Source: Eledone cirrhosa (lineage: Eukaryota). Taken from it: a stretch of DNA of 64,000 nt. Within the stretch, counting starts at the first letter, position 1, and every line of letters begins with the position of its first letter. The stretch covers positions 26,908,001 through 26,972,000 of the forward strand of contig OZ024757.1 in assembly GCA_964016885.1 (NCBI GenBank). Reading direction: 5' to 3'. The notes below the pieces were generated by a model. That model saw nothing but the letters and a program-made list of their open reading frames with translations. It did not search any database and was not told the DNA's origin. Of the stretch, positions 20,215 through 59,002 are shown piece after piece. Both the position numbers and the translations under genes were made by a program.

Positions 20215-20572
20215 TATTTCTCACATAATATTGAATCTACTAGATTTTGATATTTATTTTGAGAACAATACCTTAATGTCAGTATGAGCAGCCAGTTACA
20301 GTTGGTTTGAAGAGAAAAAGGTGAGAGAATTCTGGATGGATACGGCCGGTTTAAATGCCAAAGGATTACAAGAGCTGTATCTGGCCAGAATTCTCTCACC
20401 TCTTTCTGTTCAAACCAGCTGTAACTGGCTGCTCATACTGACATTAAGATATTCTTCTCAAAGTAAATGACATCAAAATCTCATAGATTTGATATTATGT
20501 GAGTTAAGTATGTAAGATAAAGCCTTACCACAAAAATTGCAATAGTATATATAGAGTAATGTAAATGTTAAA
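20215..20572. mobile_element. Two partial piggyBac-like MITE copies, inverted relative to each other
   Basis: Homology to 51661-51894 on both strands. Confidence 0.7.
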
Positions 20573-29690: not shown

Positions 29691-30061
29691 ATATATACAA
29701 TTTTTATGTTTGCTTATCTAAGCTCACAAAAGTAAAATATGACTTCGAGGCAATAGACAAGTGCCTATACGCATTAATATGATGTACCTATTATAAATAC
29801 CATGATACACACAATTAAACACACACTATATATATAATTAGAATTTTATTTCTTGCCGTAGCACAGTTGATACATGAATGTAAGCATGCACACGTAGACA
29901 TATATATGTGTGTGTGTGTGCATACTTGTGTATGTATATATATAATAAAGAATTTATATCTAGTAACATATATATACATACAAATGCATATCGATGCTAG
30001 CAAATATATAGGTTTTGTCTTAATAACATTGTGGTTCAATGCATGGGGTTGCAGAACAATA

Positions 30062-30165
30062 ATATAAGAGACGTAAGATAAGAAAATTATAAAATTAACT
30101 TACTTACTAAAATATTTTAGTAAGTAAGTTAATTTTATAATTTTCTTATCTTACGCCTCTTATAT
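30062..30165. repeat. Spacerless palindrome, 52-bp arms, one mismatch
   Basis: Centre CTAAAAT|ATTTTAG lies between 30113 and 30114; arms compared by eye. Confidence 0.9.
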
Positions 30166-30536: not shown

Positions 30537-30762
30537 GACGGAGGAAATGTGGTAAGGAACCAGGTGGACCATAATGCACCAAAGTACTCAATACTTAGGG
30601 TAGTAGAGTGGGTAATAGGAACGAGTAGGACCCCGACGGCTGAGCTCAAGCCGTTTCGACGGCTAATTCTGGACTACATTCTAGTCCAGAATTAGCCGTC
30701 GAAACGGCTTGAGCTCAGCCGTCGAAACGGCTTGAGCTCAGCCGTCGGGGTCCTACTCATTC

Positions 30763-30804
<42 letters not shown>

Positions 30805-31008
30805 GTATATATATGTATATATATATATGTATATATATATATGCAGAGCTCAAGCCGTTTCGACGGCTATTTCAGAAATAGCCGTTGAAACGGCTTGAGC
30901 TCTGCCGTCGGGGTTATACTTTTTCCTATTACCCACTCTAGTACCCTAAGTATTGAGTACTCTGGCGCGTTATGGTCCATCTGGTTCCTTACCACATCTC
31001 CTTCGTTA
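30537..31008. mobile_element. Foldback non-autonomous element (two copies) embedded in (TA)n
   Basis: Arms of about 120 bp (GGAAATGTGGTAAGGAACC...GAGCTCAAGCCGTTTC) flank a central hairpin. A third copy lies at 46416-46590, with fragments at 9046-9065 and 59018-59090. Confidence 0.75.
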
Positions 31009-34652: not shown

Positions 34653-34659
<7 letters not shown>

Positions 34660-34792
34660 ATATTATCGGAGGGTCATGTTGTTATAATATTGCCAGAAAT
34701 ATATAGTCGAAAACATACTCAACAGTCAGTGTGTTTTACTATATATTTCTGGCGATATTATAACAACATGACCCTCCGATAATATAACAATA
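34653..34792. repeat. Palindromic element, 55-bp arms, abutting (TA)n
   Basis: TATTGTTATATTATCGGAGGGTCATGTTG... and its reverse complement, with one mismatch and a 30-bp spacer that is itself partly self-complementary. Confidence 0.85.
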
Positions 34793-35209
34793 GTTGTTTC
34801 AACACACGATTTCATATTAAAAAAAACTTGCAAAATAAATTCATGTATATATATATATATATATATATACACATACATACATACATATGTGTGTGTGAAA
34901 AAATTTCATTGTAAATATAAAAGATCATTGTAATACAACAATTATCAATAACAAAAGGTCCGAGATAGCGATTTGTGAAATTTCCGTTTCCACTAAAATA
35001 TATATTATATAACCATGTCCTGTCTTTAGAACCCACCTCATCCCCGTTTTCTCCCTATTGTTTACACTTAAATTTATGTATGTGTATCAAGCACATATGT
35101 GTGTGTATTAATATATCTGTGTATATTAGTATGGGTGTGAGCAGGTATAACCGTTATGAATTTGTCAGTATCATATTATATGTGAATATTAGTCGTACGT
35201 GTGTGTAAG

Positions 35210-40877: not shown

Positions 40878-41152
40878 CGTACATGTGCTTGTAGTTGTTA
40901 AGATTGTTTTCATTTAAATATAAACAATTTAAAATAAGTAGTTTTGTATATAAATAATAAAACAAAGAAAAATATGAACATCAGAAACATTCTTAGGTTG
41001 TCAGAATATAAAGAACTTGTGAATAAATCTCTTTAACCAAACAGTCATACCTGTGTTTATATTATAAATCCCACCCATTCTTTAATAGAAACAACTTTAA
41101 AAATGTGAAACTTTGAAATTCTTTTTGTGGGGTAGGGGTGCTTTTAAAAAAA

Positions 41153-41194
<42 letters not shown>

Positions 41195-41235
41195 GATATT
41201 AATAAATGGAAACTATATTTATAAAACCATATTTA

Positions 41236-41296
41236 TTTCATTATATATATTTCAGGGATACCACATTAAATTATGGTATGCCTTCATCAGACAAAA
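41236..41296 (-). ncRNA. Minimal type I hammerhead ribozyme (minus-strand copy)
   Basis: Exact reverse complement of 41441-41501. Confidence 0.75.
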
Positions 41297-41440
41297 TACA
41301 ATATATAATAGTTTTACAAATAGGTTTGACGTACCCTTTAAAATACAACCATTACTTTTTGCTTCTGACAGGATCTAAAAAGTAATGGTTGTATTTTAAA
41401 GGGTACGTCAAACCTATTTGTAAAACTGTTATATATTGTA

Positions 41441-41501
41441 TTTTGTCTGATGAAGGCATACCATAATTTAATGTGGTATCCCTGAAATATATATAATGAA
41501 A
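41441..41501 (+). ncRNA. Minimal type I hammerhead ribozyme
   Basis: Helix I TTTTGT/ATGAAA (two G-U pairs), core CTGATGA at 41447-41453, helix II AGGcATACCA/TGGTATcCCT, GAAA at 41484-41487, palindromic TATATA, and a UA cleavage site after 41495. AATAAA follows. Confidence 0.75.
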
Positions 41502-41635
41502 TAAATATGGTTTTATAAATATAGTTTCCGTTTATTAATATCGTATATCTACTCCAAAAATTTGTCGAGTGCTTTATATCAGTTATAAAAATATTTACTT
41601 GTTGTATCCCAACAACTTTAAATAGAACTTTTGCA

Positions 41636-41676
<41 letters not shown>

Positions 41677-41717
41677 GTATATATATGTGTATATATATAT
41701 ATATGTATATATATGTG

Positions 41718-41856
<139 letters not shown>

Positions 41857-42015
41857 ATATATACGTATATATATATGTATGTATATATATGTATATATAT
41901 ATGTATATATATGTGTATATATATATATGTATATGTATATATATGCGTATATATATATATGTATATATATATGTGTATATATATGTGTATATGTATATAT
42001 ATATGTGTGTATATG

Positions 42016-42072
<57 letters not shown>

Positions 42073-42154
42073 GTATATATATATATGTATATATATATAT
42101 ATGTATATATATATATGTATATATATGTATATATACATATATATATATATACAT

Positions 42155-42504
42155 ATCATCATCATTTCATCATCATTTCATTTTACGTCCGCTTTTTCCC
42201 TGCTTGCAAGGGTGGGACGGGAACTGATGCTGGCTTGATTTCTACAGCTGGATGCCCTTCCTAACACCAACCTCATTTACAGTGAGTGCTGGGTGCTTTT
42301 TTGCCGTGGCACCTCCACGACCACTTTGCAGTGGAATGATAGGGACCTCAGTCCCTATCATCTCATTTCTACAGCTGAGTAAACTGGAGCAATGTGAAAT
42401 AAAGTGTCTTGCTCAAGGAAACAACACATCACCCGGTCTGAGAATTGAACTCACAATCTTTCGATTGCAAGGCCAATGCTCTAACCACTAAGCCATGTGC
42501 CTCC
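42155..42504 (-). mobile_element. SINE family B, full length
   Basis: Reverse complement of 18522-18870. Confidence 0.88.
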
Positions 42505-42578
42505 ATCTATACACATATATACATATATATATATATACATCAGCACTATACACACAGAGCTGGCATATCTAAGAACTA

Positions 42579-42634
42579 ACTGCCTGATGAGGTCATAGCC
42601 ATTCAATGGCTATCATCGAAATATATATAGCAGT
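42579..42634 (+). ncRNA. Minimal type I hammerhead ribozyme
   Basis: Helix I ACTGC/GCAGT (perfect), CTGATGA at 42584-42590, helix II GGTcATAGCCA/TGGCTATcATC closed by G-C, GAAA at 42618-42621, TATATA, and a UA cleavage site after 42629. AATAAA follows immediately. Confidence 0.82.
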
Positions 42635-42833
42635 AAATAAAGGATTATGAGTTCATGCAATTGACTTATGTTTCGTCACTATATATGTATATATATATGT
42701 ATATATATATAATTTAAATAATGATAATGATGTAAAGAAAATATTTTTAATGATTATGATGATGATATTGATAATGATGCTGATGATGATGTTGCTGATG
42801 TAAAAAGAAAAACCAAACAGGAAACAATGATGA

Positions 42834-43156: not shown

Positions 43157-43434
43157 CTCAGCCGGATGGTAAAAGAGTATGTATATATACAGGGTGTCCC
43201 CCGAAAATGTATGCACACATTGATTACCTGTATAGGCAATATTTATCAGAATGCTGTTGAGGTATGTATACATTTTTGGGGATACCCTGTGTATACATAA
43301 ATGCATGGCAACATCTGTTTAGAATAAAGTTGTTATATAAATGGGCGGCATTTCATTTGAGAGAATGAATTAATTGAAAATAAAACATAATAATGATAAT
43401 AAATATAATAATGATAATAATAATAATAATAATA

Positions 43435-45245
43435 AAGGCATTCAGCATAGTACCACATTCTTGGATAACCTAAAGCCTAGAGATCTTCAAGGTGGCAGAT
43501 AACATCAGACAGCTATTAAGCACAGTATGAAGTCCTGGGAAGTTAGCATCAGGTGGAGAATCCTTGGGAGGCGTGAAGATCAAGAGAAGTATCTTCCAGG
43601 GAGATAGTTTGTCCCCTTTGTTGTTTGTCCTTGCCATGATACCCCTGTCTGTCATATTGCGAAAAGTGAGAGCAGGGTACAAGTTGGGAAGAGGAGTGCT
43701 TACCATCAACCACCTCCTCTTCATGGACGATCTTAAACTCTTTGGGAAGAGTGAGAAGGAGTTGGATGTACTTGTTGACACTGTCCGTATTTTCAGCAAA
43801 TATATATGTATGGAATTTGGTGTTAATAAGTGTGGAGTCCTAGTGATGAAGAGGGGGTAAATTGAGCAGAAGCAACAGAATCCAGGTACCAACAGGTGAG
43901 ATGATAAAGGAAATTGACCCTGAAGAGGGATACAAATATTTAGGTGTTCTGGAGGCAGATGACATCAAGAACAAAAAAATGAAGGAATTGATAAGATCTG
44001 AATACATAAGAAGAGTAAGGAACATATTAAAATCCCATCTAAGTAGTAGGAATGTCATAAGTGCAGTAAATTCCCGAGCTGTGTCTATTATTAGGTACAG
44101 TGCGGGAATTCTGAAATGGAATGTTGCTGAACAAAAAGAAATGGATAGGAAGACTAGGAAGCTAATGACTATCTACAACATGTTCCACAAGAGGAGTGAT
44201 GTTGAATGATTCTATTTAAAAAGATCTGAAGGTGGAAGAGCCCTTATCAGCATAGAGGACTGTGTTCAGATGGAGAAAAACAACCTGCGCAAATATGTGG
44301 CTGACAGTAGGGAGCCAATGCTCAAAATTGTACTGAAGGAGAAGACGATAGACCAGGGGATGTCCAAGGAGGAAATAACAACAAGGAGGAAGAGCAAAAA
44401 ATCCCTTCATGGCACCTTCTTTAAGAAAATGGAATTTAGAGATCCACAGACATGGAACTGGCTAAAAAGAGGAGACCTTAAAAAAGCTACTGAAGGAATG
44501 CTAATGGCTGGGCAAGAGCAAGCCCTCAGAACGAAGTGGGTGAAACACCATATTGACAAGGAGGAAGCTAGCTCACTGTGTAGGATCTGTGGAGAGAGAG
44601 AGAGGAGACTGTGGCTCACATTGTATCCGAGTGTAAACACCTAGCCCAGACTCACTATAAAGGCTGGAGACATGTTGTGATAGGCAGGGTGATCCACTGG
44701 CATCTATGTAAAGTAAACAATTTACCACATTCTGAGAAGTGGTATGAGCATAAGCCAGAGTCGGTGATAGAAAACCATCAGGTGAAGGTGCTATGGGATT
44801 TTAGGATACAGACGGACAAGAAATTAGAACACAATAGGCCTGACCTGGTGGTTTTGGACAAGGAAAAAAGATTGTGCCTGATTGTAGATGTAGCCTGCCC
44901 ATTTGACATGAGAGTGCAAGAAAAGGAGAGGGAGAAAATTAACTGATACCAGGATTTAAAGTGGGAGGTAAAAAGGATTTGGAACTGCCATGAAATGAAG
45001 TCGTCCTGATTATCATAGGAGCACTAGGTACTATCTCAAAGAGTTTCCAAGGATGGTTAAAGAAGATTAGTCCAGCCCCACTTTTTGGAACACTTCAAAA
45101 GGCATGCTTGCTGGGAACAGCAAGAACCCTCCGATACGGCCTGTATGTCTGAGGCTGCAGGTAGCGGCTTGATATTCATTTCAACAAACCTTCCAGTTAA
45201 ATAACATCAATGACTGAGACTCAAAGAACAATAATAATAATAATG
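43435..45245 (+). mobile_element. R4/Dong-clade non-LTR retrotransposon, 5'-truncated and frameshifted (RT, CCHC knuckle, restriction-like endonuclease)
   Basis: RT motifs IFQGDSLSPLLF, LFMDDLKLF and YKYLG; CRICG...HIVSEC zinc knuckle; RPDLVVLD...IVDVACP endonuclease. Several stops and frameshifts are present, and (TAA)n lies on both sides. Confidence 0.88.
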
Positions 45246-46415: not shown

Positions 46416-46417
<2 letters not shown>

Positions 46418-46590
46418 GAAGGAAATGTGGTAAGGAACCGGGTGGACCATAGCGCACCAAAGTACTCAATACTTAGGGTAGTAGAGTGGGTAATAGGAAC
46501 AAGTAAGACCCCGGCGGCTGAGCTCAAGCCGTTTCGACGGCTAATTCGAAACGGCTTGAGCTCAGCCGCCGGGGTCTTACTTGTTCCTAC
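46416..46590. mobile_element. Foldback element copy with collapsed central hairpin
   Basis: Same arms as 30537-31008; the centre is reduced to GTTTCGACGGCTAATTCGAAAC. Confidence 0.75.
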
Positions 46591-47476
46591 ATATATATAT
46601 ATGATGATGATTTCCTTTCAATGAAACAGTTCTAGTCTTGTAGAAGCTATTTCTATATTAAATTTTGTTGTGTTCACTCTACTAATGTATTGAGTACCTT
46701 ACTTACTTTGAACCCGGGATTCATATATATATATATATATATTACTTCAAAATATTAATAAATATAGACATTCATGTGATCAAATATTGTTAAACTCTTA
46801 AATATATATGATAAAGCAAGTTCATGTCAAAATGGAGAGCAATCAAGATAATAAATACAGAGTTAATTTAAATATTTATTACACTCTTAGTATCATTATA
46901 AATCTATTTTATTATGAGTTTCAAGTACACTTAAGCTGGTTGAATGCACTCAACTAGCTTGAGTGTATTTGAAACGAATAGTAACAGGGTCTGACAATGA
47001 TTCTGATTGTAAAACAAATATACTAAATACACACCAATAAAAAAAGGACCTTCAACGCTGCTGCTGAAGATGACTTAAACATACAATAAACTCACTGTTT
47101 GGATTGGGAAAATATTTTTCTTCTTTCTTCTTCTTCATACAAATTGTCGGCGGTATTTGTTCTGACTCTTTATGTTCAGAGTTCAAATCCCACCTAGGTT
47201 CACTTTGTCCTTCATCCATCCGAGGTAGATAAAACAAAGTACCAGTAAAGTACTAGGGTCGGGAAAATTTGACTGCCCCGCCTCCGCCAATACAATCACA
47301 CACACACACATATACACACACAGGGTGTCCCCCAAAAATGTATATACACTTTGATTACCTGTACAGGCAATATTTATTAGAATGCTGTTGAAGTATGTAT
47401 ACTATTTTTGGGGACATCCTATTTATATATATATATATACACACACACACACCCGCATAATATATATATATATATA

Positions 47477-57216: not shown

Positions 57217-59002
57217 TCATCATCATCATCATCATCATCGTTTAACGTCCATGTTCCATGCTTGCATGGGTTTGGACGGGAGTTTTCCCACTTGAGGCAA
57301 GAGTGGTTGTCTTGCTCGCATAGGACTGTCTGGCGGGTTTTCTACAGTTGGATGCCCTTCCTAACACCAACCACATTTACAGTGTGGGGCTGGGAGGTTT
57401 TTACCGTGTTGCCTACACGGCCACATTACAGCGTGGACTGTCTGGCAGGTTTTCTACAGCTGGATGCCCTTCCTAACACCAACCACATTTACAGTGTGGG
57501 GCTGGGAGGTTTTTACCGTGTTGCCTACACGGCCACATTACAGCGTGGACTGTCTGGCAGGTTTTCTACAGTTGGATGCCCTTCCTAACACCAACCACAT
57601 TTACAGTGTGGGGCTGGGAGGTTTTTACCGTGTTGCCTACACGGCCACATTACAGCGTGGACTGTCTGGCAGGTTTTCTACAGCTGGATGCCCTTCCTAA
57701 CACCAACCACATTTACAGTGTGGGGCTGGGAGGTTTTTACCGTGTTGCCTACACGGCCACATTACAGCGTGGACTGTGTGTTTTTTGTCGTGACACCTAC
57801 ACGATCTCATTTGTTTCGGCCTGGATTTTGTGGCACCAACATAACTTTACATTGAAAGGGGCGGTGTGGATGGGGTGGGGGTGGTGGGACGGGGGTGTAT
57901 TTTGTGAGAGATGCCTACTGACTGTAGTAGGTTTTACTATGTATTTAGGTAACGCGATCTTCTCTGTTACTGAGTACCGCCAAAGGTCTCGGTCCAGTGA
58001 CATTGTCTTGGAGAGGTGTAAGTGTGTGAGGTCGGAATGTATCAGCTCGTCCCAGGTTTTTCTGGGTCTGCCTACTCCATGGCTACCATCTATCTTTATT
58101 GCCCTGCACTTTGTTATACAGCTGTCGTCTTTCATGCGCATCACGTGACCATACCAACGTAGCCTTCTCTCGAGTAAACAACATCTGATCCCTCTTATTT
58201 CTAATTTTTTCCTTAGTTCGTGTATGCTTTGCCGTTCGCGTATATTACTATTACACATCCAGCGGAGCATGCAAGCTTCGTTCCTCTCTAGTCTGCGTAT
58301 ATCCTCTGCACACAATGCCCAGGTCTCACTGCCATGCAACATTGCTGTTCGTATGCAGGCATCATACAACCTGCCTTTCACTTTTAGGGAGAACCCTTTA
58401 GCGGCTAATAGTGGTATAAGCTCTCTGAACTTTTTCCATCCAGTTCTGACTCTAGCTACTGTACTTTCGGAGCACCCTCCCCCACTGCTGATTTTGTCAC
58501 CCAGGTAACGGAAGCTGTCCACTATTTCTATAGAACCCTCTGCGCAGTTGAAAGAGCTAGTATTTTGTGGGCATTTGCTGCTACTTATTGCACCAGAGCA
58601 CCGGCCACATGTAAAATCTGTGTTCTTAGTTAGCTTACCTGTGATCCCACTACATCTTTTATGCACCCATACTTTGCATTTGGGACATAAAATGGAGTTT
58701 CTACCTACGCCTTTCCTACACACTGAGCATGGCCATTTCCCGGAAGGGACCGGCGCCTTATTTTCTTTCCTACAAACTAGAACTTTAGTCTTAGCCATGT
58801 TAATTTTAAGGCCTTTTGATTCTAGGCCGTGCTTCCATGTTTGGAATTTCTTCTCTAGCTCGGCCATTGATTCAGCTATGATCGTTAGGTCATCTGCGTA
58901 TAGGAGTTCCCATGGGCAGCCGGTCTTGAACTCCTCTGTTATAGCCTGAAGAGCAATAATGAATAGTAGGGGGCTAAGAACAGAGCCCTGATGGACACCA
59001 AC
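57217..59002 (-). mobile_element. Young 5'-truncated RTE-clade LINE (RT C-terminal half with embedded PHD-type finger, 3' UTR, (GAT)n tail)
   Basis: Uninterrupted 402-codon frame 59002-57797: VGVHQGSVLSPLLF, LLYADDL, GLKINMAKTK, C4HC3 insert, FRYLG, LHGSETW, RLRWYGHVMR, GRPRKTW. The tail reads CCATGCAAGCATGGAACATGGACGTTAAAC(GAT)n. Confidence 0.93.
57323..57777. repeat. 112-bp tandem repeat, 4 copies, in the RTE 3' UTR
   Basis: GGACTGT recurs at 57323, 57435, 57547, 57659 and 57771. Confidence 0.93.

Follow-up and report, generated by a model that had tools for sequence, protein, structure and literature searches.

How did two hammerhead ribozymes on opposite strands come to face away from each other in a near-perfect palindrome embedded in (TA)n, and would such ribozymes be able to act? 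These questions are raised by a locus in a window of 64,000 nucleotides of Eledone cirrhosa DNA, the window being the whole stretch that was analysed.

The palindrome and its hammerheads

The palindrome is composed of two arms of 172 bp each, at positions 41189-41360 and 41377-41548, which differ by 2 mismatches (41207/41530 and 41309/41428) and enclose a centre of 16 bp (41361-41376); the arm length, mismatch count and spacer given in the earlier note were thus reproduced. Its boundaries, 41189..41548, proved too short, since public contigs and reads show that the element runs 86 bp further right (41549-41634). The whole insert, at approximately 41189-41634, therefore comprises the palindrome and this 86-bp right tail, and it lies inside (TA)n. 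On the left it is bordered by a (TA)n tract (41156..41193), which covers the outer 5 bp of the left arm and, judging from the sequence, is the likely insertion target; on the right it is bordered by a (TA)n-rich tract (41635..42155). Both insert junctions are inside (TA)n, and no target-site duplication is readable there. The left arm, oriented on the minus strand, stops at a short family end (the mirror of 41548), and the right arm, on the plus strand, stops at a long end 86 bp further out; both appear to be 5'-truncated 3' ends of an element. The one-sided tail, also on the plus strand, contains an AC-rich stem-loop of 6 bp (41599..41615, +; fold z -2.0), the last base of which coincides with a frequent end of family copies.

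Each arm holds a complete minimal type I hammerhead that points away from the centre, in agreement with the earlier reading. The hammerhead of the right arm (41439..41503, +) has its core from 41447 and a predicted cut after 41495, and that of the left arm (41234..41298, -) has its core from 41290 and a predicted cut after 41242. Read outward, the order of parts is an 8-bp helix I, CTGATGA, helix II (3 bp, a C.C mismatch and 8 bp), GAAA, TATATA, TA and then AATAAA; on the plus strand helix I occupies 41439-41446/41496-41503, the core 41447-41453, helix II 41454-41483, GAAA 41484-41487 and the palindromic TATATA 41488-41493. The AATAAA said to follow the hammerhead is present (41500..41505, +), but it overlaps the 3' strand of helix I rather than standing clear of it. 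At the bases after A9 the arm copy reads A-U, or a bulged A plus G.U, with U at position 11.1; the family variant 41483 T>C would give G-C at 10.1-11.1. Both ATGs located just 3' of the predicted cut site meet stops within 3 codons. The palindrome locus carries only this head-to-head pair, and no head-to-tail hammerhead tandem was found there.

A strict hammerhead descriptor gave 3 matches in the window vs. 0 in 30 block-shuffled windows, a relaxed descriptor 3 matches vs. a mean of 0.075 and a maximum of 1 in 40 shuffles, and a pattern search 3 matches vs. 0 in 100 shuffles; per these shuffles, the arm hammerheads are not chance pattern matches. The motif and covariance searches suggested earlier agreed only in part: the descriptor and pattern scans rise above the shuffles, but the Rfam covariance models gave no match at the gathering score in the window, and no hammerhead family was among the 18 Rfam matches at E<=10 in 41100-41640. 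The miRNA-type Rfam matches at the palindrome occur because of the hairpin only. Separately, 11 pattern matches in metagenomes were all rejected as chance, as they showed pairing of helices I and II in 0 of 11 cases and no blastn similarity to the element.

The third match is a diverged hammerhead of a second family, located outside the palindrome at 42579..42634 (+), with its core at 42584 and a predicted cut after 42629; it was overlooked in the earlier note, whose count of hammerheads was incomplete. It sits in a solo unit of about 140 bp (42539-42680, +) between (TA)n-like runs, and this unit ends 50 nt past the predicted cut, the short ends of the main family being 46-53 nt past theirs. 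The core, the palindrome, the C.C at helix II pair 4 and the downstream AATAAA, here just after helix I, are shared with the arms; it has G-C at 10.1-11.1 and no extra nucleotide after A9. Between the arm and the third hammerhead, compensatory changes that keep the pairing are found in 6 of 11 pairs of helix II and in 3 of 5 pairs of helix I. Thin as it is, with two distinct sequences compared, this covariation is the best local evidence of selection on the fold. We also note that the C.C mismatch (41457/41480 and 42594/42614) is retained in two otherwise diverged families; it is possibly a site of tertiary contact.

Folding predictions concern both the single ribozyme and longer transcripts. 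For a single ribozyme, the predicted MFE fold is inactive (-14.9 kcal/mol, the active monomer being at -8.9 kcal/mol), and the predicted probability of helix I is below 0.004 when one arm is folded together with its flanks. When two arms are co-folded without constraints, the predicted MFE structure is the active dimer, at -35.0 kcal/mol and with an 8-bp intermolecular helix III, and the arm hammerheads are predicted to self-cleave as dimers; the predicted dimer MFE of the third hammerhead mispairs the core. A 2017 paper in RNA Biology reportedly describes PLE hammerheads that cleave as dimers. For a read-through RNA of the whole insert, the predicted structure is a hairpin, at -276.5 kcal/mol on the plus strand and -265.4 kcal/mol on the minus strand, in which the pairing probability of hammerhead helix II is about 1e-20. 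On either strand the antisense arm is transcribed before the ribozyme arm. Given these two points, the hairpin, which had been thought to compete with self-cleavage, would rather abolish the hammerhead, and read-through is predicted to switch the ribozyme off completely. Dimerisation, by the same modelling, would be possible only for RNAs that start near the centre.

Copies of the arm and tail in public sequence data

Four (X1, X4, X5 and X12) of the 14 sequencing runs listed were aligned at 85% likeness to 41340-41634, i.e., to one arm, the centre and the tail; the small-share runs X6-X11 were left out of the family counts. No RNA run was among those listed, which says nothing for or against expression. 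The contigs of X1 and X4 carry species label A and come from one study, the contigs of X5 carry label B, and the reads of X12 carry label A and come from another study. X1 may be related to the source of the window; X5 and X12 are from other studies. Pieces that match the arm or tail number 5434, 856 and 75 contig pieces in X1, X4 and X5, respectively, and 33711 reads in X12, a RAD-seq run in which proportions are skewed by restriction sites; most of them are 90-99% alike. The arm belongs to a large diverged repeat family, seen in all four runs, three studies and two species labels. Across 41549-41634 the family depth and family variants persist in all four runs, and therefore this stretch is element and not host flank.

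The ends of family copies fall at a few recurrent places. Copies stop before (TA)n at 41548 in 58 contigs of X1 and 5645 reads of X12, and near 41632 in 3 contigs of X4. Mixed flanks follow the family ends 41541 (1253 reads of X12) and 41615 (2727 reads of X12), the latter being represented by 2727 loose ends and 2054 molecule ends in that run. As a side observation, one X1 contig joins the predicted cut at 41495 to the start of helix I at 41439, with 2 letters between, at a depth of 629 (contig depths are summed depths, not copy numbers); either bare ribozyme cores arranged in tandem or a misalignment in low-complexity sequence may explain this joint. The runs X4 and X1, which have the same species label, differ strongly in their variant spectrum, e.g., 41559 A>T at approximately 92% vs. 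43%.

Among the rows listed, in which variants are unphased, 15 variable places lie in 41430-41510; the 12 core positions that are invariant hold none of them, and one is at N7 (hypergeometric P=0.07 for core avoidance, and 0.04 inside the ribozyme). The conservation of core and helices that was anticipated for a genuine ribozyme is thereby observed, in the 12 invariant positions as the lack of a listed variant and in both helices as covariation against the third hammerhead (two sequences). Pairing survives with 41498 G>A, 41478 A>G, 41473 G>A and 41482 C>T and also, within the dimer helix, with 41491 A>G; it is not obviously kept by 41473 G>T or 41461 C>A.

The two mismatches between the arms could be assigned to one arm each. 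At 41530 the family base is A (17390 of 17556 and 3183 of 3237 reads of X12), which makes the G of the right arm a private change; at 41428 G stands in the loose-end consensus of X1, X5 and X12, and the change at 41309 is private to the left arm. Relative to the family base, the private changes are therefore an A>G and a G>A. Each arm has changed once, and in the opposite direction to its partner, a pattern that agrees with neutral decay of a young insert and with neither an editing imprint nor a fold-back artefact; an ADAR (A-to-I) imprint in the two mismatches is ruled out by the same directions. The earlier description of the insert as recent is plausible on the strength of one private change per arm, but gene conversion could mimic youth.

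The centre has no depth in the contigs of X1, X4 and X5 (bin 41360-41369). Raw reads of X12 cover it at a depth of 1+1 and extend into the left arm to about 41345; they probably represent one molecule and give weak independent support for the junction. Two contigs have a head-to-head arrangement of their own. In record 1 of X1, one arm corresponds to 41382-41548 (26 differences) and the other, which enters the tail, to 41380-41581 (1 difference); 19 letters separate them. The arms of record 8 of X4, separated by 61 letters, show 14 and 0 differences. These two records may be other loci, an allele, or assembly chimeras. The 13 listed joints of opposite strands (12 reads of X12 with at most 2 starts, and 1 contig of X1) were left out as possible chimeras.

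Origin of the insert

The repeat search of the unmasked whole window was dominated by microsatellites; after masking, 8 self-palindromic matches were obtained, and the palindromes measured were 5 at >=89% identity and 1 included by family similarity. All six (ours and five others) have one end at most 4 nt from (TA)n and the other end 53-101 nt away, an asymmetry found in 59 of 14054 random stretches and in 0 of 4 MITE-like repeats. Three of the others are head-to-head inserts of one family (~30537-30766, 30843-31008 and 46417-46590), whose centres differ and whose common tail, about 78 bp long, is found on one side only. Two more are near-perfect palindromes (34653-34846 and ~29976-30165) with one end flush with (TA)n and the other 53 or 85 nt off; the putative tails at 34653-34792 and 30062-30165 are single copies. 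In the palindromes designated B and E, the centres are 1 and 0 nt long. The retained part of the five other palindromes contains no hammerhead. The head-to-head architecture is thus routine in the window (6 in 64 kb).

Other repeats of the window include two MITE-like families with imperfect terminal inverted repeats, one at 6178-6526 and 20220-20503 and one at 8152-8256, 43190-43290 and 47321-47420. A Pfam search of 148 of the 150 complex ORFs of at least 55 aa in the window revealed 0 GIY-YIG domains and no convincing host exon. Matches to the RVT_1 domain are at 43531-43857 and 57800-59002, in separate fragments. They fall in broken LINE-like RT fragments at 43531-44943 (+) and 57800-59002 (-), the second of which has a PHD finger within the RT region; homologs of its part 57800-58900 are hundreds of LINE-like proteins of marine animals, including Hydractinia and Branchiostoma.

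Very probably the palindrome is one Penelope-like (PLE) insertion into (TA)n, made of two 5'-shortened hammerhead-bearing 3' ends placed head to head. That the insertion is of PLE type can be said with still greater confidence, and separate priming of the two arms is slightly favoured. The PLE origin is supported because four hallmarks are found: a minimal hammerhead, head-to-head inversion, a one-sided tail and a (TA)n target. As in EN+ PLEs, the minimal hammerhead is located near the 3' end, with the cut 46-53 nt before the short end, and the tail is present at one end only, but it measures 86 bp vs. the published 30-40 bp. The idea of an inverted pair of PLE pseudo-LTRs lacking a coding region, put forward in the earlier note, fits these four hallmarks; the extent proposed for it missed the tail, and none of the 148 ORFs searched is a GIY-YIG one.

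In the proposed mechanism, a GIY-YIG endonuclease would nick both strands of the TA tract, and each 3' end would prime reverse transcription on the element RNA. One priming start would be distal, at the tail end near the AC-rich stem-loop, and the other proximal, about 50 nt past the site cut by the ribozyme. The two cDNAs would halt about 70 nt upstream of the core, and they would be end-joined head to head with a 16-nt filler. The hammerheads would be passengers in this process: selection would maintain them in active donor elements, and cutting is predicted for dimers only. Separate priming is modestly favoured by the X1 and X4 contigs, in which the arms are unequal, and by the centre, which is apparently not family sequence. 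Priming on (TA)n by the UA-rich 3' end of the cleaved RNA was considered and rejected, there being no family end at 41495 among the ends listed.

It is conceivable, with clearly less probability, that the insertion was of PLE type and that a single cDNA folded back and primed its own mirror arm, or that unequal arms were later made alike by gene conversion, the tail being a product of endonuclease resolution. The identity of the arms save for one private change each and the minute centres of palindromes B and E agree with this, and the relevant parts of two papers propose self-priming for head-to-head PLE junctions (PMC3846280) and EN-mediated resolution as the origin of the tail (PMC8557442). 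Conversion would in addition suit the arm in record 1 of X1 that is 1 letter from ours over 202 bp, a contig that could be an allele of the same locus. However, fold-back cannot make unequal arms such as those of record 1 of X1 (1 and 26 letters from the window) and record 8 of X4 (0 and 14), and our 16-bp centre, which lacks depth in three contig sets, is unlike upstream family sequence, even if a hole in depth proves little. A further proposal, which is compatible with the preferred explanation and alters the donor only, seems doubtful to us: the donor would be a short non-autonomous, retrozyme-like hammerhead element that a PLE mobilised in trans and whose own 5' boundary would lie near 41377-41430. 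Record 1 of X1 indeed turns at 41380/41382, at most 5 nt from our junction, family depth falls steeply upstream of 41430, and retrozymes are argued, in the text available to us, to derive from PLE pLTRs (bioRxiv 10.64898/2026.07.22.740005). Yet record 8 of X4 turns at 41414/41415, the locus has no head-to-tail tandem, and the sequence of the loose ends before 41432 is homologous but diverged, which explains at least part of the fall in depth.

The locus might also be maintained as a regulatory unit, either as a ribozyme switch or as a read-through hairpin supplying ADAR or Dicer and silencing the family; such a hairpin is predicted (-276.5 and -265.4 kcal/mol on the plus and minus strands), and antisense small RNAs against Penelope families are reported for a rotifer in the part of PMC3846280 that was available. 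This is nevertheless very improbable, as no host exon is recognised in the window, the same architecture occurs five more times with no hammerhead in the retained part, and the arm differences, one A>G and one G>A, are as in neutral decay. A DNA-transposon MITE or a fold-back element that carries a hammerhead by coincidence would account for the long inverted repeat, the missing ORF and the TA-rich site, and MITE-like repeats are common in the window, but the ends are asymmetric (the 86-bp tail), the same arm occurs with other centres and ends among the copies, and the end pattern is seen in 0 of 4 MITE-like repeats, which makes this explanation extremely improbable. We give the least credence of all to an assembly or library fold-back artefact: the centre is uncovered by the contigs of X1, X4 and X5 and no listed piece spans the whole stretch, but each arm has its own private change where the other arm keeps the family base, both outer ends coincide with family ends, and reads of X12 (depth 1+1, probably one molecule) cross the centre into the left arm to about 41345.

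Under the PLE insertion with two separately primed arms, a bolder generalisation can be offered, tentatively and as rather less probable than its opposite: in this genome, every head-to-head PLE insert may have one short and one long end, with an unusually long tail of 53-86 bp and arms that possibly derive from different subfamily RNAs. If true, this one-short/one-long rule would mean that asymmetric double priming by a PLE RT dimer has left a fossil record throughout the genome, and it would settle how PLE inversions form; each head-to-head insert would in addition be a hairpin gene, already assembled, with the capacity to silence the family it came from. The single locus is of little weight, being one scar of an abundant repeat family. 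The genome, however, seems to be rich in very short, young head-to-head inserts, in which one can count which ends were chosen and where the arms came from. Should A-to-I editing be hyperactive in this species, the hairpins would also serve as easy test substrates.

Comparison with known systems

The literature search yielded no description of the arm family, and no paper on PLE hammerheads in octopus or other cephalopods was among the matches listed; subscription papers and, for the arm family, Repbase and Dfam were outside the search. Recently active Penelope families are described in an octopus, in an account whose available part does not mention ribozymes (PMC13282606). The head-to-head arrangement itself has already been described, and the mildly new point is a tail about twice the published 30-40 bp.

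Various features of the arm hammerheads agree with those of metazoan PLEs as far as the latter are covered by the accessible text of Cervera and De la Pena 2014 (PMC4209133). Dual minimal hammerheads located approximately 100-700 bp apart on opposite strands were reported there, and the minimal hammerheads of PLE repeats were characterized as mostly truncated PLE remnants with low, dimer-only cleavage. Common to both are the type I fold, the long helix II, the palindromic helix III region, the predicted activity as a dimer, and the U-rich 5' and AU-rich 3' flanks. In contrast to that description, our palindrome has 6 nt and gives an 8-bp dimer helix, helix I has 8 bp instead of 4-5 (in the dimer fold, 6 more follow a bulge), a C.C common to two families is present at helix II pair 4, and position 11.1 is U, though C in part of the family.

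Similar short, non-coding, AT-rich units with a type I hammerhead, likely related to PLEs, are known as animal non-LTR retrozymes (PMC7229834; bioRxiv 10.64898/2026.07.22.740005). According to the parts of these sources that were available, retrozymes form head-to-tail tandems that yield circRNAs, whereas this locus is a head-to-head pair.

The insert as a whole resembles those of EN-bearing PLEs (Penelope/Poseidon, Neptune, Hydra and Naiad), for which the accessible portions of two papers (PMC8557442, PMC3846280) describe an inverted 5'-truncated copy joined at the 5' end, a tail at one end only, (TA)n targets and no readable TSD. The one-sided tail of 30-40 bp and the (TA)n bias are given in the first of them (PMC8557442). 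Unlike these elements, our insert has a tail of 86 bp (53-85 bp in the neighbouring families) and retains no ORF. The formation of PLE inversions and tails is still called unresolved in the available text of PMC8557442 and PMC11167929.

A recent paper by Frangieh et al. 2024 (PMC11167929) provides a close experimental system, PAc (Poseidon of Anolis), for which the part of the article at hand reports that both strands are cut and extended in vitro, that two RT starts bound the tail, that an AC-rich stem-loop is present, and that insertion does not require the hammerhead. The mechanism proposed above is patterned on these findings. The hammerhead of PAc overlaps the ORF start, whereas here the ATGs after the cut soon run into stops. 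Our insert shares with PAc the two ends that bound the tail, the AT-rich target and an AC-rich stem-loop at a frequent end, and the tail ends of our family may, by analogy only, correspond to the RT start sites of PAc.
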